The notes: generated from the letters alone by a model not told the origin. Counted from the stretch's first letter, positions 5,036-55,848 are shown. The stretch is DNA of 64,000 nucleotides from Escherichia coli (GCF_044647545.1 NZ_CP172818.1); one strand, 5' to 3'. Numbers and translations are program-made.

Positions 5036-6228
5036 ATGCAGGTAGCCCAGTTCAACTCTCACTACCAGTATGATCCCAAGTTCGAGCGCGGAATGTATCT
5101 GTATGAGCATCGTCGCTGTTTCAATAACATCATCGACTACTGTAACTCACTTTGCTATCACGGTAAGTTGCAGCCTAAAAGAGGGATGGAAAAAGGACGA
5201 TTTTCCCCGCAATGGGATATTTACATATTGATGGTAGAGGCATGAAGCCAAATGGAGGGAGCCGTCATAACCCTCTTGAAGCTGAAACAATAGCAGCATG
5301 GCTGGTGGCACATAAGGATGATATAGAGCGCCATTACGGGGAACCACTGTACAAAGTTGTTGGTGTTGTGACGCCATTTTCGGCGCAGGTTAATGCTATC
5401 AAAATGTCATTGCGTAAGCTGGAAATTAATGGCAAAGACGAGCAGGGTTTACTGACAGTGGGGACTGTGCACTCCTTGCAGGGGGCGGAAAGGGCGATTG
5501 TTCTCTTTTCTCCTGTCTACTCAAAACATGAAGATGGCAGGTTTCTTGATAGCAACAGCACTATCCTCAATGTTGCTGTCTCACGCGCTAAAGATAGTTT
5601 TCTGGTATTTGGCGATATGGACCTTATCGAGATGCAGCCCGCATTTTCGCCGCGAGGGTTATTGGCAAAATATCTCTTTTCTTCAGATAATAATGCGTTG
5701 CAATTTGAGTTTCAGAAACGACAGGATTTAATTTCCGCACATACACAAATTTCAACGCTGCATGGTGTGGAGCAGCATGATGAATTTTTGAACAAGACTC
5801 TTGCCGGAGCTCAAAAGAAAATAACGATTATTTCCCCTTGGTTATCCTGGCAAAAAGTGGAGCAAACGGGATTTCTGGCATCAATGGCTTTGGCCCGTTC
5901 CCGGGGCATTGATATTACCGTGGTGACGGATAAAAACTGCAATATAGCGCATGTCGATGATGATAAGCGTCAGGAGAAACAACATCTGCTGAATGATGCT
6001 GTTGAAAAGCTCAATAAGATGGGTATCGCTACGAAATTGGTTAATCGTGTTCACAGCAAAATTGTGATTGAGGATGAAGAACTGCTGTGTGTCGGATCTT
6101 TTAACTGGTTCAGTGCTACACGGGAAGATAAGTATCAACGATACGATACGTCTTTGGTGTACCGTGGTGAAGGCGTAAAAAATGAAATAAAGGCAATATA
6201 TGGTAGTCTGGATCAACGTCAGCTTTAA
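5036..6228 (+). pseudogene. yjhR: Frameshifted, 5'-truncated SF1 helicase C-terminal domain fused to a PLD-like (HxK) nuclease domain
   Basis: ORF 5036-5245 (..[11 protein letters not shown]..) continues in another frame as ORF 5212-6228 (..[15 protein letters not shown].., ..[20 protein letters not shown]..); no helicase N-terminal motifs upstream. Confidence 0.7.
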
Positions 6229-6810
6229 ATGTGATGAGCCGTTCATGATACAGGAGTAGTAAAGGGCATATTTTACCAATGTTAAGGCGACTTTCCGTTT
6301 TATTGCGAGTCGCCTTTCCTGATTATAAATCTTATTGTTTACCTAATCATTTTCCTTTGCATAATGCGCCTGGGATTAATGGCGGGTGCTTTTAGGAATG
6401 AAAGAAAATGCAAGCAATAATATAATAATGGCCTAATTTCTTTGAACATCATTAAGCATATCATCATCGTCTATTTGCCAGAATCCGTCGACTTATAATC
6501 GCCAGAACGGCATATCAGGACGGTGCTGCGAACGCTGTGGCCCAAAACGTTCCAGTAAACTGTGTAGATGTTCGTAGATTTCCGAGCCATAATCGAAAAG
6601 GCGCGGATGTCTATTAAGGCATCCGGCTAATCTGTAAGCAATAACAACGGTTTATGCGGTGCGCGTTTTTCACCCTTGTGCCAGATTATTATATTGGCAA
6701 TTGCCTGCTGTTCGAGCCCGCAAGTGAAGAGATATTACCTTGATCTCATTTGTTTTTTGTTGTCTACTCTGAGAACGAACAAGGACATCCCCCATGAATA
6801 AACTCCCCGC

Positions 6811-7791
6811 TCACCTTTCGCGCCAAAACTGCAAAATTGCTTCTACAAACCTGTCAGAAATAATCCCTCGACGGGCTGCCGCGCTGAAATGACTGCTTCG
6901 CAGTGCCGTCGTCCAGTTCTCCGGTGACCGGTACGCTGAACCGTAATATCCCGTGCTTAAATCGTCCGGATCTTCATCAGGCGCGTTCGTCAGTCCTCTT
7001 GCACCTTGTTGCTGGAAGTCGACGAAAATAATATTGGCTAGAACATTATTTTGATAATTGCCATAAATAGCTTCATACGCATGAGGGAAATTTTCTTTCC
7101 AGTACCAGGTGGTATCGCCGCAAAACCACGGCGCGTCAGTAATTTTATTAAGCTGAGAATGGTATTGTTTTAGATCCCTACGAAAGGCGTCAACCATATG
7201 ATTAAAGTGTTGAGGGTGTGACGCGTAGTCACTGGTCATTAAGTCAAATTCGCCTTGCATCCAGCATACGCCGAGGAATTTGTTCTGCGGATTTTTTGCC
7301 AGTGCGGCTCGCGTTCTGCTGACTAAATCCTGGTATAGCGGAGTATCCGTTCCCCAACGACAAGCATCATGGCTGGCTCCGTGCCGTTCTGAATATGTCC
7401 CTTCGCTGCCCGCGGTAAAAGCCGATCCGCCACGGCAACACGGAACGATGAGAACCCCTGCATTATCAGGAATAAAGGGCAGTAATTTCCGTGCTATATG
7501 TAGTGCCTGGCCAACGGTGCCGTACTGTGTTTGATGATTCGTTGCCAGAGGATGGTGATAACCCTGCATATCCTGAACATCGTGTGGGCAGTGAGTCAGT
7601 GGAATAATGTCGTTAAAGTGACATGACGGGCCTCCGGGATGTGTATGCGCAAATCTCGCTAATTGTTTAATTCTGGGATGAGGCGCATCTTCCTTGTCCG
7701 GTAATGGTAGTCCTTCGCCATACGCCATGGCATTAGACTGACCAGCAACGGTAAGAACATAGTAATAATCGGGCGATATTATTGCGTTCAT
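6811..7791 (-). CDS. nanS: 9-O-acetyl-N-acetylneuraminate esterase
   Basis: ORF 6811-7818; ATG at 7789-7791 gives MNAIISPDYYYVLTVAGQSNA... (326 aa). Confidence 0.85.
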   Translation of the reverse strand: MNAIISPDYYYVLTVAGQSNAMAYGEGLPLPDKEDAPHPRIKQLARFAHTHPGGPSCHFNDIIPLTHCPHDVQDMQGYHHPLATNHQTQYGTVGQALHIARKLLPFIPDNAGVLIVPCCRGGSAFTAGSEGTYSERHGASHDACRWGTDTPLYQDLVSRTRAALAKNPQNKFLGVCWMQGEFDLMTSDYASHPQHFNHMVDAFRRDLKQYHSQLNKITDAPWFCGDTTWYWKENFPHAYEAIYGNYQNNVLANIIFVDFQQQGARGLTNAPDEDPDDLSTGYYGSAYRSPENWTTALRSSHFSAAARRGIISDRFVEAILQFWRER

Positions 7792-7855
7792 ATAATTTTC
7801 GCGTAATACAAATGACAAATTGATAGCAAGGCCCCTTTACCGGGGCCCTGAAGCG

Positions 7856-8962
7856 TTAGTTTTGTACTGTGACTTTATTATCCTTCACAGAAATTAAAAC
7901 TGAATCCGTCACCGCTTTGCCGCCTGCAGTTTCACCGCCAATAATTAATAAACTATTATTCCAGGGCAATGATACTCCGTAGGCCCGACCTTGCGATAAT
8001 TCGCCCGATTTATCCCATTTCCCGTTATGCCAAAGATGAATATCAGCGCTATATGATTTTTTCAGGCCTTCATGCGCATAGTTCTTACCGTTCTGGTAAT
8101 TTTCTCGTGAACCTTTGAATCCGGCCCCTCCGGCAAATATAAGTGAGTCATTGCTCATGCCTGCAAAACCGCCAGCGACGCCATCTGGTGATGCGACGGG
8201 AGCAAGCTTATTCCATTTTAAATTATTACCGGTGAAATCAAGTTCAAATACGGCATCCGTTCGCAATCCTGGTTTGGCTTCGCCATTAATAAGCCAGGTT
8301 TTATCACCTTTATTCACAACCGCCGCACCAGCCGTTCCGTACCAGGGAGATTCGCCAGCGTAACTCCATTGCTGTGTAGAGGGATCAAAAGACAACAGAA
8401 ACTTATTGAAGAAATAATCTTCTGCTTTTTTGTCAAAATAGTGGGCGTTGATTTTATCTATAGTGGTTGAATCTTTTCCAGCTTCGTTGAGATCTTCAAA
8501 ATAGCCATTGAAGATATTCTGGTTAACACCGCCAGTAACATAAGCCTTGCCGTTGTGTACAAAAGTCACATGGCCCGCCATGCCCATCGGCGCGTGCGAC
8601 ATCAATTTAACCCAGCTATTGGTTTTGGGGTTGTATTTGTGTACGTCATTAAATACCTGAGTCAAGCCCTCGCTGTTTTTGCCAATGCCGCCAAACACAT
8701 ACAGATTACCATCAATAAATGCAGAGGTTGCTTGATCTCTCGGTCCACCAGGGAATGCAGCTAACGCTGTCCATTTTTTATCTTTGGCCTGTGTATCCAG
8801 CTTGTACCATGCTGTACCTGCGCTACCTAAACCAATGTAGACAGTGTCGTTATCAATTGCTCCGGTACCACTTTTAAATGGCACAGGAGTTTCCGGTAAT
8901 ACAGACGCGTTTGCGGCAAATGAAGCCATTATGATAGCAAGCGCCGTTATTGTTTTATTCAT
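7856..8962 (-). CDS. nanM: N-acetylneuraminate mutarotase (Kelch-repeat periplasmic protein)
   Basis: ORF 7856-9070; ATG at 8960-8962 (MNKTITALAIIMASFAANA...) with a signal peptide and GGAGA RBS. Confidence 0.85.
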   Translation of the reverse strand: MNKTITALAIIMASFAANASVLPETPVPFKSGTGAIDNDTVYIGLGSAGTAWYKLDTQAKDKKWTALAAFPGGPRDQATSAFIDGNLYVFGGIGKNSEGLTQVFNDVHKYNPKTNSWVKLMSHAPMGMAGHVTFVHNGKAYVTGGVNQNIFNGYFEDLNEAGKDSTTIDKINAHYFDKKAEDYFFNKFLLSFDPSTQQWSYAGESPWYGTAGAAVVNKGDKTWLINGEAKPGLRTDAVFELDFTGNNLKWNKLAPVASPDGVAGGFAGMSNDSLIFAGGAGFKGSRENYQNGKNYAHEGLKKSYSADIHLWHNGKWDKSGELSQGRAYGVSLPWNNSLLIIGGETAGGKAVTDSVLISVKDNKVTVQN

Positions 8963-8981
8963 TGTGACTGTCTCCTGTCTA

Positions 8982-9698
8982 CTACAGTTTAAATGATACA
9001 CCAATGCGATAACTGTTTTCCGATAAATTATCTCTGCCGTTGTAAACACCCTGACGGTCAAGGTAGTCATATTCTATGTATGGCGTAATATCGGGCGTCA
9101 TATGGTATTGTAGAACAAATGCATTTTCCGTCGCCCATTTCTTATGGTTTGCATAGCGATAATCGTTCTGTTTGCTGTATAGCGTCGTTTGCCATGCGAA
9201 GGTGAAATCACTATTAATATGGTAAGTGACATATCCATCCCAACGATGAACGTTATCACGAGACATATCACCGGATAAGTCTTGTTGTCGGTAAGCTTTC
9301 CAGTCGTAACGATAGCGAATGCCAAAATTAAGATCTTTTGTCGCGTCCCAGGACAGTTTTACGTAGGGTCCGTAGCGGGTGCCGTTGCTGCTAAAATGCG
9401 TTAACATTCCCGGGCGCACCGTCCATTGATCATCAAGTTTAATCGCGTAATTAACTTCAACCTGAACATCATTGAGTGCGGCATTTTCCTTTTTATTATC
9501 ATGAATGGTATTCCAGGTATTACTTTCCATGCTTGCCCACCATCCATTTTGCCATCCCTCACTGACTTTGAGTCGAGTCTCATAGGCATGGCTTCCGCTA
9601 CGATATCCACCACGTACGTCCAGTGTCGCAGCCTGAGAAATTAATGGTGACGAAAAGCACAGTAATAATACGCCAGAAAGTATTTTAGCCTTTTTCAT
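8982..9698 (-). CDS. nanC: N-acetylneuraminic acid outer-membrane channel (KdgM family)
   Basis: ATG at 9696-9698 gives MKKAKILSGVLLLCFSSPLISQA... (238 aa); beta-barrel C-terminal ...IGVSFKL. Confidence 0.9.
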   Translation of the reverse strand: MKKAKILSGVLLLCFSSPLISQAATLDVRGGYRSGSHAYETRLKVSEGWQNGWWASMESNTWNTIHDNKKENAALNDVQVEVNYAIKLDDQWTVRPGMLTHFSSNGTRYGPYVKLSWDATKDLNFGIRYRYDWKAYRQQDLSGDMSRDNVHRWDGYVTYHINSDFTFAWQTTLYSKQNDYRYANHKKWATENAFVLQYHMTPDITPYIEYDYLDRQGVYNGRDNLSENSYRIGVSFKL

Positions 9699-10121
9699 AA
9701 ATTTCACTCATTTGTAGGATACAGAAAGCAATACAAAGCCCGCATAAACAATTAGCATTTATGTTGTGTAATATTTTTTGCCAGGCTTATAGTGTCTTTG
9801 GCAATGGGTAGCTTATTTTATATTTTTTGTATAAGGTCTCCTGTGAAAATTCTCTTTTCACATTATTTAAATAAACAGAGAGCCAGATTAAATACCTGAG
9901 TATAAAATCTCTTCTGATGTTTAATTGATTTGAATGTTCGTAAGCTATATCACTTACTCAATCCATTTTACCCAGAGTCATAAAATAGAGTGTTTGTTGA
10001 TCTCATTTTCATATTCCTTTCAGACTGAAGTGCGTTTTCATCACCCGATGAGAAAGAACTGAAGTGATGTTTGCCATAGATTGCAAGATGCCCTGTCTCA
10101 TTGTCTATCGCGGTGCACCTT

Positions 10122-10136
10122 TATACCTGTTATACC
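10122..10136 (-). promoter_or_regulatory. Candidate NanR operator (two GGTATA hexamers, GGTATAACAGGTATA on the minus strand)
   Basis: Plus strand reads tatacc-tgt-tatacc, about 420 bp upstream of nanC. Confidence 0.5.
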
Positions 10137-10883
10137 AGATCAAAAATCACGCAATCCATACAACAAAACCAGATTTGCAATTCGTGTCACAAAATATGTC
10201 GATCTTTTTCTAAGAGGAAGATGCCATGTGAAGCCAGACGAACACTTGCGGTGGTCTTCAAAAACTAAAGATATTCTTTTAAATATCTGTTTTATAAATA
10301 ATTTATTTAGAGTCTAAATAAGGGAAGCTTTGTAAGCTAACTCAGTGAGCTTGGTGAAAATAAGTGTTTACCCGCCATCAGGCTTAGCATAATTCTCATC
10401 ATGAAATATGTTTCCTGGTTTGTGGCTTGTAACTGGTCACTCCTGAAGCCGATCTGGAGAGGCTTGTTGATGTTGGTGTTTTCAGGGTGATGCCTCACTT
10501 AGTTTGTTTGCCGTATCGCCCGGCGAACAGCTGTGATTGAGGAAGGTTTAAGTCGTAGTGACCAAAGCCATATTTACCAACGGATGCAGATGAAAAAATC
10601 GTTTCCTGCTTTCCCCCATATCTCCATGATAAAAAGGAATGTAACAATCTCATGGTCTAAACTGACGAACCAGCCAGGAATAATCGCTAGGGACCTAAGA
10701 ATTAGCATGATAATAGCCACTAAGAAATTACTGCGTTCCATGAAATAGCCATTTTGTGGCAAATGGAGTTGACTAATAATGTCATATGTGAGACGGCTAG
10801 TTGAGCGAATATTAAATTTTGCTGAATTTTTTATGTTGATTTTACTTGTTACAGAACATATCACATGATATATAGATAATAAG

Positions 10884-11544
10884 AGAAGACAGCGCCGGGG
10901 GCCCGCGGCGCCCGCTCCCAGCGCGGCGGGGGCGGGGGGGGGATATAAGGGAGCCTCGTCCCACACCAGCAAAGGGGACGCGGCTCGAGCCCAGCGGGAA
11001 GGGGCGCGGGGAACGTCCGAAGGCGTCATACGCGTAAAACAGCCAGCGCGCGCGATGCGCACATCCCACGTTCGTCCATTCCGCGCAGGACGTGACGACG
11101 CCGGCGTTGGCGGGTTACCGCGCGGCGGGCTGCGGGGCGTTGAGGAACGCCCATAATGGCGGGCGTGCGGCTCCAACGTTCGGCTCTGTTTGGGCTGGTG
11201 CGTACCGGGTTGAGAAGCGGGTAAGTGAACGCGTTGCCGTTTTACGGCAGTGAGAGCGAGTAGCGCCCGCGCGCGGGGGGGGCGGCGGGGCGCGGCCGGT
11301 GTCCCCGGCGCGGCGCGGGTTCGTGGAGGCCACGCGCCAGTGCGGGAGTGGGCCCGGCATGCGAACGGCCGCACTGGGGGCATTCAATGACGACCTTCTC
11401 GGTTCGTGGTGGAGAGGGGGGGACGGTGGGCAGGGCGGCGGGGCGCGGCCCGGCGGGGCCGCGCACCGGGGGGGGGGGGGGGGGGGGGGGGGCGCACCAC
11501 CCCGCGTGCTGCGGGGCAGCGGTGGGCGGCCCCTCTCTCGGGAA
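10884..11544. other. Non-native GC-rich block with a 32-nt G homopolymer occupying the position of fimB-fimE-fimAICDFG and most of fimH; probable artefact or engineered scar, not a gene
   Basis: Abrupt switch at about 10884 from AT-rich nanC-fimB intergenic DNA to high-GC sequence with G runs (10920-10940, 11273-11281, 11469-11502); ends where the fimH reading frame resumes. Confidence 0.8.
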
Positions 11545-11715
11545 CAGTTGATGCGCAACGGTACGATTATTCCAGCGAATAACACGGTATCGTTAGGAGC
11601 AGTAGGGACTTCGGCGGTAAGTCTGGGATTAACGGCAAATTACGCACGTACCGGAGGGCAGGTGACTGCAGGGAATGTGCAATCGATTATTGGCGTGACT
11701 TTTGTTTATCAATAA
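11545..11715 (+). pseudogene. fimH: 3' remnant of fimH (type 1 fimbrial adhesin); the rest of the fim operon is absent
   Basis: Translation ...RNGTIIPANNTVSLGAVGTSAVSLGLTANYARTGGQVTAGNVQSIIGVTFVYQ* matches the FimH C-terminus; upstream frame dissolves into GC-rich filler. Confidence 0.85.
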
Positions 11716-11785
11716 AGAAATCACAGGGCATTGCTAATGCAGGTACGCAATATTACCTGAAGCTAAAAACCTGCACGTTAGCCCT

Positions 11786-11826
11786 TTGTAGGCCAGATAA
11801 GACGCGTCAGCGTCGCATCTGGCATA
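11786..11826. repeat. REP (repetitive extragenic palindromic) element
   Basis: tgtaggccagataagacgcgtcagcgtcgcatctggcat, canonical REP consensus. Confidence 0.7.
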
Positions 11827-11887
11827 AACAAAGCGCACTTTGCGACAATCCGAACAGAGCCCGCCATTGGCAGGCTCTGGTGTTCTT

Positions 11888-13231
11888 TTACGCTACCATG
11901 CTAATAATCAACACAATAATCAGCCCAACCACGGAGTTGACCAGCTCCAGCAGTCCCCAGGTTTTCAACGTGTCTTTTACCGACAGGTCAAAGTAACCTT
12001 TGAACAGCCAGAATGAGGCATCATTAATGTGGGTGAGGGTGTTGGAACCCGCAGCCGTCGCCAGCACCAGCAGCGCCGGATTCACGCCAACCAGCTGACC
12101 GGTTGCTGGATCAAGGATTGCAGCACTGATAATCCCGGCGGCGGTCATCGCCGAAACGACACCCTGACCCGTCGCCAGACGAATTAGCACAGTGATCAGC
12201 CATGCCATAATGTAGGGCGAGATATTGCCGTGGGACATCAACATGCCGATGGTGTCGCCAATGCCGGTGTCGATGATAGTTTGCTTCAACACGCCACCCG
12301 CACCGATGATCAGAATCACCATTGCAATGCTTTTCACCGCACTTTCAAAAGCGTTCATCACCCACTGCATGTCATGACCACGTGCGGTGCCAAAGAGTAC
12401 GAATGCAACCACCATCGCAATAAACATTGCAATCGGCGAGGAACCGATAAAGTTAACCACTTCCCAGGCAGGGGTATCTTTTACCAGCCAGATATTGGCG
12501 ATGGTGGTGGAGATCATAATGATCGCCGGGATCAGCGGCACCAGAATCGAAACGCCGAAAGAGGGCAGATTGTTCATATCTACCGGTTGATCTGCTTTCA
12601 GGAATGATGGCGTTGGGCGCTCAAGATTGCCGAGGAACTTCGGCAGGATCAGACCTGCGCAGATTACACTTGGGATCGTCACCAGTACGCCATAGATATA
12701 AACCATCCCCATATCTGCGCCATAAGCATTCACCAGCGCCACAGGACCCGGCTGCGGTGGGAACAGTGAATGTGCGGTAGTGGCAGCTGCTACTGCCGGG
12801 ATCGCCAGTTTCAGGAACGGAATTTTAGCTTCGGCGGCAATGACAATAACCAGCGGCGCTAACATGATAAAGGCCACTTCATAGAACATCGCCAGACCAA
12901 AAATCAGGCCGATGATAATCACCGACAGCTGTACATAGCGCAGACCGAGACGCGCCAGCAGCGTATGTGCTATCTGGTGAGCCGCGCCGGAGTCGACCAT
13001 CAATTTACCGATGACCGCACCGAACACCACGATGATAGCCAGTTCCCCCAGCGTGTTGCCGAAGCCCGCTTTCATGGTGTGCAGCAGCGACATCAAATCC
13101 ATGCCCGCCAGCATCCCGACGGACAGCGCCGCCACCAACAAAGCCACCATTGAATTGATTTTGAACTTCAAATTCAGTACCAGCATCAGACCAATGCCGA
13201 ATACCACCCAGAGAATGTTAAGCACATGCAT
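11888..13231 (-). CDS. gntP: Fructuronate/gluconate transporter (GntP family)
   Basis: 447-aa multi-[22 protein letters not shown]... Confidence 0.9.
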
Positions 13232-13284
13232 AACGTTTTACCTTACCTGGTTGAACCGTTGTTATTTTGGGCGACATGTTATGT

Positions 13285-13300
13285 AAATTGGTCAACCATT
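13285..13300. promoter_or_regulatory. Candidate UxuR/ExuR operator
   Basis: aaattggtcaaccatt, close to the AAATTGGTnnACCAATTT palindrome; in the gntP-uxuA divergent region. Confidence 0.5.
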
Positions 13301-13393
13301 GTTGCGATGAATGTCACATCCTCTGATCAATAACCATCGATTACCCTTTGCTGCAATTTGCAGCAACAACCAGGAGAGTGAAATTCTTGTGAT

Positions 13394-13408
13394 GTGGTTA
13401 ACCAATTT
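13394..13408. promoter_or_regulatory. Candidate UxuR/ExuR operator (second site)
   Basis: tggttaaccaatttt, second half-site-type palindrome about 175 bp upstream of uxuA. Confidence 0.5.
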
Positions 13409-13570
13409 TAGAATTCGGGTTGACATGTATTACCAAAAGGTAGAACTTATACGCCATCTCATCCGATGCAACGCCACGGCTGCGGTCTGGTTGTTCATCC
13501 GGATACCTAAACAACTCCAGGGTTCCGCGTCTCTTTGCTGTGGAACCCACTATGTGAAAGAGGAAAAATC

Positions 13571-14755
13571 ATGGAACAGACCTGGCGCTGGTACGGCCCA
13601 AACGATCCGGTTTCTTTAGCTGATGTCCGTCAGGCGGGCGCAACTGGCGTGGTTACCGCGCTGCACCATATCCCGAACGGCGAAGTATGGTCCGTTGAAG
13701 AGATCCTCAAACGCAAGGCGATCGTTGAAGACGCAGGCCTGGTATGGTCTGTCGTAGAAAGCGTGCCAATTCACGAAGATATCAAAACCCACACTGGCAA
13801 CTATGAGCAGTGGATCGCTAACTATCAGCAGACTCTGCGCAACCTGGCGCAGTGCGGCATTCGCACCGTGTGCTACAACTTCATGCCGGTGCTCGACTGG
13901 ACCCGTACTGACCTCGAATACGTGCTGCCAGACGGCTCCAAAGCTCTGCGCTTTGACCAGATCGAATTCGCTGCATTCGAAATGCATATCCTGAAACGTC
14001 CAGGCGCGGAAGCGGATTACACCGAAGAAGAAATTGCTCAGGCAGCTGTTCGCTTCGCCACTATGAGCGACGAAGACAAAGCGCGTCTGACCCGTAACAT
14101 CATTGCTGGTCTTCCGGGCGCGGAAGAAGGGTACACCCTCGACCAGTTCCGTAAGCACCTGGAGCTATATAAAGATATCGACAAAGCCAAACTGCGCGAA
14201 AACTTTGCCGTCTTCCTGAAAGCGATTATTCCGGTTGCCGAAGAAGTTGGCGTCCGTATGGCTGTTCACCCGGACGATCCGCCGCGCCCGATCCTCGGCC
14301 TGCCGCGCATTGTTTCCACCATTGAAGATATGCAGTGGATGGTTGATACCGTAAACAGCATGGCGAACGGTTTCACCATGTGCACCGGTTCCTACGGCGT
14401 GCGTGCTGACAACGATCTGGTTGATATGATCAAGCAGTTCGGTCCGCGTATTTACTTCACCCATCTGCGCTCCACCATGCGTGAAGATAACCCGAAAACC
14501 TTCCACGAAGCGGCGCACCTGAACGGTGACGTTGATATGTACGAAGTGGTGAAAGCGATTGTTGAAGAGGAACACCGTCGTAAAGCGGAAGGCAAAGAAG
14601 ACCTGATCCCGATGCGTCCGGACCACGGTCATCAGATGCTGGACGACCTGAAGAAGAAAACTAACCCAGGTTACTCCGCAATTGGTCGTCTGAAAGGCCT
14701 GGCCGAAGTTCGCGGTGTCGAACTGGCGATCCAGCGCGCTTTCTTTAGCCGTTAA
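13571..14755 (+). CDS. uxuA: Mannonate dehydratase
   Basis: ORF 13535-14755; ATG at 13571 ([19 protein letters not shown]...) with RBS GAGGAAA; 394 aa. Confidence 0.9.
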
Positions 14756-34867: not shown

Positions 34868-34912
34868 CAGTTTTGCGGTTGAGCGGCAAAGGCGTCGTTT
34901 AAGTGACGATAA

Positions 34913-34934
34913 ATATGTGATTCATATCACATAT
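34913..34934. promoter_or_regulatory. CRP binding site with a perfect TGTGA-N6-TCACA core
   Basis: atatgTGTGAttcataTCACAtat; the flanks extend it to an 11-bp inverted repeat with a 4-bp spacer (34911-34936). Confidence 0.65.
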
Positions 34935-35022
34935 TTATATTGTGAATAATTTATGTAAATAATGGCTTTTTAAATTCAGAGTGTGAATAAAATTACTCGG
35001 CGTAATCTCCGCGGGATATTCA

Positions 35023-40527: not shown

Positions 40528-40576
40528 TGTAGGCCGGAGAAGGTGTGTAGGTCGCACCTTATGCGACCTACACATC
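40528..40576. repeat. REP-like palindromic element
   Basis: tgtaggccggagaaggtgtgtaggtcgcaccttatgcgacctacacatc, between the convergent lgoD and opgB. Confidence 0.55.
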
Positions 40577-55728: not shown

Positions 55729-55848
55729 ATTTCAGACCATTAAGAAAATTTTATCCAAAGCCAGTCCAGCGGACTGGCTTTTGCGGTTTTAGCGAATAAT
55801 AAATTGCGTTACTTTGTCATTCTTTCACAACAAAACAGGAAGGCAGAG

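Follow-up and report, generated by a model that had tools for sequence, protein, structure and literature searches.

The stretch of Escherichia coli DNA analysed here, 64,000 nucleotides in length (the window), carries the divergent genes gntP and uxuA. The 340-bp intergenic region that separates them had a match in 5,404 of 5,426 complete E. coli genomes, with identities of 90-100%. The features of the locus were as follows:

11888-13231, minus strand: gntP (fructuronate transporter, 447 aa), open reading frame annotated in K-12 with the same layout
13285-13300: UxuR/ExuR-type box 1, AAATTGGTCAACCATT, core TGGTCAACCA at 13289-13298, centre 13293.5
13303-13318: CRP site, TGCGATGAATGTCACA, centre 13310.5, also conserved in Citrobacter
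13348-13356: left arm of the palindrome, TTGCTGCAA, 100% complementary to the right arm, with 1 nt between the arms
13358-13366: right arm of the palindrome, TTGCAGCAA, 100% complementary to the left arm
13367-13373: hypervariable 7 nt abutting the right arm, CAACCAG here, 0 of 7 columns invariant among six Escherichia lineages
13388-13403: CRP-like TGTGA-N6-TAACC, overlapping box 2
13394-13408: UxuR/ExuR-type box 2, GTGGTTAACCAATTT, core TGGTTAACCA at 13395-13404, centre 13399.5
13414-13450, plus strand: uxuA core promoter region, -35 TTGACA at 13420-13425 and weak -10 GAACTT at 13443-13448
13431-13442: conserved 12-bp palindrome TACCAAAAGGTA within the uxuA core promoter region
13571-14755, plus strand: uxuA (mannonate dehydratase, 394 aa), open reading frame annotated in K-12 with the same layout

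Boxes 1 and 2 are complementary to each other (93% over 14 nt), and box 1 was conserved in all Escherichia and Citrobacter loci compared. UxuR genomic SELEX maps two sites to this spacer (PMC5934670), the same 16-mer TGCGATGAATGTCACA is the CRP ChIP-seq site for gntP/uxuA in ETEC H10407 (PMC4287617), and CRP SELEX reports multiple CRP sites in the interval. The gntP promoter would be of the class II CRP-dependent type, with a minus-strand -10 TAACAT and a start near 13269, which would put box 1 at about -20 to -29. The uxuA transcript would start near 13455, and the TTGACA-N17-GAAYTT pattern of its promoter was kept from Escherichia to Cedecea and Shimwellia. The palindrome thus located would lie some 88 bp upstream of the gntP start and some 98 bp upstream of the uxuA start, so that neither mRNA should contain it. 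Its centre is 46.5 and 38.5 bp away from the two CRP-type sites, which are themselves 85 bp apart.

Measured from centre to centre, the boxes of Escherichia were always exactly 106 bp apart (30 or more sequences), and those of Citrobacter 104-105 bp. Elsewhere the distance was 115 bp (Klebsiella huaxiensis) or 86 bp (Atlantibacter), and the sequence between the boxes was not conserved. Such a constant spacing around freely varying sequence suggests a constraint of helical phase or looping. The palindrome centre falls 10.5 bp off the midpoint of the two boxes (13346.5).

The initial annotation had described the segment 13348-13366 as a perfect inverted repeat placed between two candidate UxuR/ExuR operators and different from the UxuR consensus. 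These descriptive statements were borne out: TTGCTGCAA-T-TTGCAGCAA, centred on 13357, has a 9-1-9 layout with fully complementary arms, both boxes were found on either side of it and no TGGT-NN-ACCA core occurs within it. The role that the annotation had proposed, namely a site for a different regulator or a structural element, was neither borne out nor refuted. K-12 carries the identical 19-mer in its gntP-uxuA spacer (4,551,413-4,551,431). Both 9-nt arms are palindromic in their own right, with a 4-1-4 layout (TTGC-T-GCAA and TTGC-A-GCAA), and the 19-mer can therefore be read as four TTGC/GCAA tetramers alternating every 5 bp; this nested symmetry, read from the sequence and remarked post hoc, has a chance of 1/256 for a given arm.

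Perfect palindromes with arms of at least 9 nt and a spacer of at most 1 nt numbered two in the window, against 0.65 expected from first-order Markov shuffles. With spacers of up to 6 nt, six distinct palindromes (eight arm/spacer listings) were obtained, against about two expected from the shuffled window. By extrapolation from the window, a 5-Mb genome should hold dozens of them. The palindrome by itself is not beyond chance, and context and conservation therefore had to decide. Other perfect palindromes of the window, with arms of 9-13 nt, were located at 10303-10321, 11443-11464, 34909-34938, 40544-40574 and 55757-55781; ATAAATATGTGAT-TCAT-ATCACATATTTAT and TGTGTAGGTCGCA-CCTTA-TGCGACCTACACA are two examples of such sequences.

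It is possible, if doubtful, that the palindrome serves as an operator for an Escherichia-restricted or re-targeted DNA-binding protein modulating the gntP and/or uxuA promoter. The putative ligand would be a dimer, or two dimers sitting one helical turn apart on the TTGC-N-GCAA units, and gntP would be the more likely target of the two genes. Perfect dyad symmetry and the nested 10-bp periodicity argue for this explanation. Against it, the motif had no second copy: the exact 19-mer occurred once in the 64-kb window, and E. coli genomes showed a median of one place per genome and no near-identical second copy. The nested pattern TTGCNGCAANTTGCNGCAA gave at least 120 metagenome and 26 viral matches with heterogeneous cores and contexts, the E. 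coli locus appearing once among those sampled. These numbers are, by our estimate, roughly at chance level, which also counts against an operator, and a wider motif family for TTGCNGCAANTTGCNGCAA was rejected on account of both the heterogeneous contexts and the near-chance numbers. In the window, TTGCNGCAA occurred five times versus 2.6 expected.

Comparison with known regulators and elements, the motif search suggested with the initial annotation, gave no fit to UxuR/ExuR, CRP, OxyR, the uidA operator region, terminators or Rfam. The operators of UxuR/ExuR (GntR/FadR family) resemble the palindrome in being inverted repeats of the same intergenic region, the palindrome lying between the two. 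They require, however, an even-centred TGGT-NN-ACCA core inside AAATTGGT..ACCAATTT and have been kept in genera from Escherichia to Klebsiella and Atlantibacter, whereas the palindrome is odd-centred, has a TTGC/GCAA core without GGT/ACC and was found in Escherichia only. With the 16-bp CRP pattern TGTGA-N6-TCACA, the best register of the palindrome (TGCAA-TTTGCA-GCAAC) matched 3/5 and 2/5 of the half-sites.

OxyR sites were scanned for with a simple consensus, ATAGnTnnnAnCTAT-N7-ATAGnTnnnAnCTAT (four ATAG-type elements), rather than with the published weight matrix. The 37-mers overlapping the palindrome reached at most 10/20, a score attained at 801 window positions, and an OxyR site at the palindrome was rejected, the best consensus match of the spacer falling on the uxuA promoter instead (13414-13450, with 13/20, a score that ranks among the 11 best of the 64,000 positions in the window). 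According to secondary citations, an OxyR site lies in the uxuAB/gntP promoter region and OxyR represses uxuA and gntP; the segment 13414-13450 is probably that site.

UidR/GusR was likewise rejected: in a comparison made against the K-12 uidR-uidA region rather than the published GusR operator, the palindrome upstream of uidA (CTGTGT-GCA-ACACAG, beside a UxuR-type box) proved unrelated. TGCAA-type repeats are the recognition core of CytR, and CytR-controlled promoters have a pair of CRP sites some 52-53 bp apart. The palindrome shares inverted TGCAA/TTGCA pentamers (TGCAA-T-TTGCA) between CRP-type sites with CytR operators such as that of deoP2. Nevertheless, the 85 bp between its flanking CRP-type sites, and its distances of 46.5 and 38.5 bp to each of them, differ from this geometry as generally known, and gntP and uxuA are unrelated to nucleoside metabolism. 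The searchable literature contained no report of the gntP-uxuA locus as a CytR target. UxuR/ExuR, CRP, OxyR, UidR/GusR and CytR all work on hexuronate genes or at promoters flanked by CRP sites, which speaks for an additional site of one of them, but this reading of the palindrome is hardly credible, given the missing core, the poor CRP and OxyR scores, the unrelated uidA palindrome and the CRP spacing.

We know of no fit between the palindrome and the motifs of Cra, Fis, Lrp, IHF, LexA, PurR, FNR, NsrR, MarR or PutA. By geometry alone, the 19-bp 9-1-9 operators such as the Fur box and tetO share its length and odd-centred dyad, and the Fur box can also be re-read as shorter repeated units; neither shows sequence similarity to the palindrome, which, unlike them, comes with no associated regulator gene. 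The 19-mer or a degenerate form of it appeared in no paper of the searchable literature, where papers naming both gntP and uxuA placed only CRP, UxuR, OxyR and the RpoH holoenzyme at the spacer. That no regulator beyond CRP, UxuR/ExuR and OxyR is reported there for the spacer speaks against an operator for a further protein.

Genomic SELEX with the RpoH holoenzyme lists a peak in the gntP/uxuA spacer. The sequence CCCTTTGC beside the palindrome resembles a sigma-32 -35 element, yet a sigma-32 promoter was rejected because the sole -10-like CCAT is 16 nt away and polymorphic (CCAGG, CCATG, CCGTG). An open reading frame spanning the palindrome (13311-13619) was considered spurious, since its ATG is ATA in E. 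albertii.

Within E. coli, the 19-mer was intact in at least 5,301 of 5,401 genomes (at least 98%), a figure obtained by adding the five 37-mer haplotypes (13339-13375) that contain it unchanged (1,522 + 2,688 + 500 + 18 + 573). The five common polymorphisms, at 13342, 13345, 13346, 13372 and 13373, all affect the flanks, that is, 0 of 19 palindrome positions versus 5 of the 18 flank positions of the 37-mer (hypergeometric p ~0.02); two of them, 13372 and 13373, fall in the hypervariable 7 nt. This intactness amid polymorphic flanks is an argument for an operator. In other Escherichia lineages, the core took the following forms:

Escherichia sp. 93.0816: E. coli form (perfect); gntP present
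E. albertii-type, 15 assemblies: TTGTTGCAA-T-TTGCAGCAA, 18/19 identical to E. coli; gntP present
E. marmotae-type, 4 contigs: TTGCTGTAA-T-TTGCATCAA; gntP present
L260: TTGCTGTAA-T-TTGCAACAA; gntP present
E. coli strains 6EVA and ET201: TTGTTGTCA-T-TTGCATCAA; gntP lost
GTDB representative L002: TAGTTGTCA-T-TTGCAGCGA; gntP lost

The E. albertii core was invariant in 15 of 15 spacers, its sole difference from E. coli being a T-G pair on the plus strand, while two of the nine pairs were broken in each of the E. marmotae-type and L260 cores. Loci without gntP (L087, from 6EVA, 1443-1900; L088, from ET201; L002, 2584-3000) represent a rare haplotype in which nanM directly abuts uxuA, with nanC, fim and gntP all missing. 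Among roughly 5,400 complete E. coli genomes, three have this junction, and so does the collection representative L002. UTME-7 has the same nanM-uxuA junction as 6EVA and ET201 and is included here for the junction only, not for its spacer sequence. In 6EVA, uxuA is E. coli-like (3% third-position divergence) and the spacer is about 25-29% diverged; this haplotype looks like the introgression of a deletion from a cryptic Escherichia lineage.

Outside Escherichia, four Citrobacter gntP-uxuA loci kept the divergent genes, both boxes, the CRP site and the uxuA promoter. Their spacer was unalignable with that of Escherichia and no palindrome was found in it. None was found either in the uxuA upstream regions of Salmonella, Klebsiella and Atlantibacter, where the upstream genes are others and UxuR-type boxes occur, two or three of them in the case of Klebsiella and Atlantibacter. 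The boxes were conserved in Citrobacter, Klebsiella, Atlantibacter, Cedecea and Shimwellia, and the palindrome in Escherichia only. As judged from these sequences, it is confined to Escherichia; it matches no known regulator site. The initial annotation had proposed conservation across the gntP-uxuA regions of Enterobacteriaceae as a check, and had regarded loss in close relatives without regulatory change as evidence against its reading. Such conservation was not observed, and loss in close relatives was largely what was found, the palindrome being absent from Citrobacter and broken in E. marmotae and L260; the reading is weakened by the annotation's own standard. On the other hand, a sequence intact in nearly all E. 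coli, 18/19 identical in E. albertii and with fewer variable columns than the spacer around it should not simply be dismissed. Absence from Citrobacter despite the same gntP-uxuA architecture weighs against an operator, and an essential one is disfavoured because of this absence, the lack of a reported binder and the base rate of palindromes.

Substitution rates were compared between the palindrome and the remainder of the spacer. Outside the palindrome, the segment 13320-13387 was 27-31% different from E. coli in every lineage, close to the third-codon-position divergence of gntP (30% in E. albertii, 25% in E. marmotae). Apart from its fixed length, the spacer therefore behaves like neutral DNA. 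Compared with E. coli, the palindrome had 1 change among its 19 positions in E. albertii, 2 in E. marmotae, 4 in 6EVA and 5 in L002. Between E. coli and E. albertii, the single palindrome change compares with 15/49 in the rest of the spacer (binomial p ~0.01). Among the four gntP-carrying lineages, 3/19 columns were variable in the palindrome versus 22/49 in the spacer (Fisher p = 0.022), whereas the two gntP-less haplotypes showed no difference (6/19 versus 19/49, p = 0.40). The block of the gntP promoter had 7-9/73 changes in these haplotypes versus 3-4/73 otherwise.

An operator tied to gntP would account for this pattern: 16 of 19 positions were invariant across four species-level lineages that carry the gene, a protein site would tolerate the three variable ones, and the palindrome decayed at the neutral rate of the spacer only where gntP was missing and its promoter block was also less conserved. 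More broadly, an Escherichia-specific operator or supercoil-sensitive cruciform, tied to gntP, bound by a regulator new to the locus and added to an ancient divergent promoter pair under UxuR/CRP control, might be proposed, a suggestion that we regard as tenable and nonetheless clearly on the unlikely side. If true, E. coli and E. albertii would have gained an extra input to fructuronate uptake and mannonate catabolism that is absent in Citrobacter. The conservation statistics, however, reached p values of only ~0.01-0.02 each and were partly chosen post hoc. Much of the contrast between palindrome and spacer arises because 13367-13373 differs in every lineage; once these 7 nt were removed, about 16% of palindrome columns versus 36% of spacer columns were variable and significance was lost. 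In addition, the left flank TAC-CTTTG was about as conserved as the palindrome.

Folding predictions gave the E. coli palindrome a hairpin of -8.6 kcal/mol as DNA and -12.1 kcal/mol as RNA (z = -3.7). For the 29-bp near-perfect palindrome of E. albertii, the values were -11 kcal/mol (z = -6) and -17.5 kcal/mol (z = -5.5), respectively. In the two decayed lineages that were folded, E. marmotae-type and 6EVA-type, the DNA hairpin was lost (-0.8 and -1.8 kcal/mol, z ~0), and the E. marmotae RNA fold was -4.0 kcal/mol (z = -0.8). Pair 4-16 was C-G, T-G, C-T, C-A or T-T depending on the lineage and pair 7-13 was C-G or T-G. No compensatory double change was observed for these two pairs in six lineages, the changes being one-sided and some of them breaking the pair; pairing was lost in E. 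marmotae, L260, 6EVA and L002. A hairpin under selection, whether of RNA or of DNA, is disfavoured on three counts: covariation is missing, the hairpin is lost in E. marmotae, and the palindrome lies upstream of the two promoters.

A stable predicted stem-loop is a feature that the palindrome shares with intrinsic terminators and hairpin RNA elements, and it could be imagined as an RNA hairpin in an unannotated transcript across the spacer, for instance as a stem-loop stabilising the 5' end of a uxuA or gntP transcript that starts upstream. The predicted RNA energies and the G-U pairs retained on the plus strand by the C-to-T changes at positions 4 and 7 are in line with this idea. It is nevertheless very improbable. 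Besides the loss in E. marmotae and the lack of compensatory changes, the palindrome lies upstream of both presumed starts, and the only promoter-like site of the scanned region was downstream of it, so that it has none of its own. Unlike intrinsic terminators, in which a G+C-rich stem-loop precedes a T-run, it is not followed by a U-tract (the stem gives way to caacaacc on the plus strand and to agggtaat on the minus strand), and a scan of 13150-13650 returned no terminator-like site. The covariance models of Rfam 15 gave no match at E <= 10 in 12800-14000.

At the level of DNA structure, the palindrome could act as a hinge, flexible or prone to cruciform formation, close to the apex of a loop of about 106 bp between the UxuR/ExuR operators, or as a sink for negative supercoils between the divergent promoters. 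The operator spacing held in Escherichia and nearly so in Citrobacter (104-105 bp) around freely varying sequence, with its hint of phasing or looping, agrees with such a role, as do the position 10.5 bp from the box midpoint and the stronger DNA hairpin predicted for the 29-bp E. albertii version. However, 9-bp arms are short for cruciform extrusion, the spacing is also kept in E. marmotae, L260 and Citrobacter, where the palindrome is missing, no covariation preserves pairing, and UxuR/ExuR looping at gntP-uxuA would itself be an assumption. We consider this role improbable, if less so than that of an RNA hairpin.

The right side of the palindrome in E. albertii displayed a peculiar replacement. 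CAACC has become AGAGT, which matches the left flank ACTCT exactly in reverse complement, and the resulting ACTCT...AGAGT extends the palindrome to 14-1-14 in 13 of 15 E. albertii-type spacers, with a box spacing still of 106 bp. The other two strains have one mismatch in the extension (AAAGT in L255 and TGAGT in L257). Five added pairs have a chance of 1/1024, counted as one event. Adjacent substitutions that copy the opposite flank in this way, the length staying the same, are typical of strand switching templated by a hairpin. In the known quasi-palindrome hotspots of E. coli, hairpin-templated strand switching perfects or lengthens imperfect inverted repeats. We infer the same process for the E. 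albertii extension. The palindrome resembles these hotspots in being a short inverted repeat in non-coding DNA with a hypervariable arm boundary, which fits a mutational hotspot, and in that a single change perfects the E. coli repeat relative to its presumed ancestor, next to the five-base complement of E. albertii. It differs in that the remaining lineages of Escherichia carry point changes of the ordinary kind, left uncorrected, which would make any self-correction weak.

Reverse-complement or direct donors for template switching were sought for the right flank of each lineage, and only the CAACCAGG of E. coli (13367-13374) had a reverse-complement copy. This copy is CCTGGTTG (13246-13253), in the gntP 5' leader 121 nt away, and both are part of a 17-nt inverted repeat of 76% (13237-13253 with 13367-13383). 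CAACCAGG is polymorphic, being CAACCATG in K-12, and its complementarity to CCTGGTTG is probably due to chance.

The base rate of palindromes, the location in the spacer, the decay, the absence of covariation, the signature of template switching and the lack of a known binder together favour a lineage-specific quasi-palindrome with no essential role, situated in a spacer constrained in length and free in sequence, and extended at least once by template switching. We adopt this as our preferred explanation, with a confidence that stays a little short of an even chance. Most likely, the palindrome is nothing out of the ordinary, a neutral or weakly constrained stretch of a spacer that is free to vary; its position and distribution, like the missing match to known sites and the missing covariation, are observed, and its neutrality we infer. 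According to this scenario, the palindrome sits in the one part of the gntP-uxuA control region that varies freely in sequence, a spacer of about 70 bp that separates the CRP/UxuR module next to gntP from the CRP-like/UxuR module next to uxuA. The length of this spacer is held constant, with 106 bp, some ten helical turns, from one operator centre to the other. The palindrome would have been born in an Escherichia ancestor as a near-perfect inverted repeat, which one C/T change would have made perfect in E. coli. In E. albertii, a clustered five-base replacement, produced by hairpin-templated strand switching at replication, would have lengthened it, and in the other Escherichia lineages the repeat would be decaying. 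Two observations go against this neutral origin: in the lineages with gntP, the palindrome appears modestly more conserved than the sequence around it, and its nested TTGC/GCAA symmetry is unlikely in a random palindrome (the 1/256 mentioned above). Together with the near-fixation in E. coli, they leave an operator linked to gntP as the foremost alternative.

If neutral, the palindrome would provide a small and clean example of a regulatory spacer fixed in length and free in sequence. It would also illustrate that hairpin-templated mutation can create or lengthen perfect palindromes that look like operators, which calls for caution in motif hunting. If a protein does bind it, the well-studied hexuronate regulon, with its importance for gut colonisation, would turn out to receive an input that is specific to Escherichia and has so far been overlooked. 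The stakes are modest either way, and the finding is an ordinary one unless a binder is found.

Two further observations concern the surroundings of the palindrome. The uxuA ATG lies 151 nt from the -35 element in Escherichia and 72-73 nt from it in Citrobacter. The extra Escherichia leader (13455-13570) was almost invariant, identical in 6EVA and near-identical in L002, even where the upstream spacer was 25% diverged. It contains a 10-bp stem, GGGUUCCGCG...UGUGGAACCC, its RNA fold was predicted at -39.4 kcal/mol (z = -1.8) and it had no match in Rfam; it may represent a candidate cis-regulatory leader.

On the gntP side, the type 1 fimbrial operon is absent from the window (10880-11543, in the context 6197-11935). 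Homology to K-12 covers nanS, nanM and nanC, breaks off shortly ahead of fimB (6197-10879) and is found again within the 3' end of fimH (11544-11843). The intervening ~0.66 kb does not belong to the K-12 region and is weakly IS1-like, with 72% identity over 317 nt to the IS1A of SK1144, a strain that carries an IS1 at the same fimH junction.
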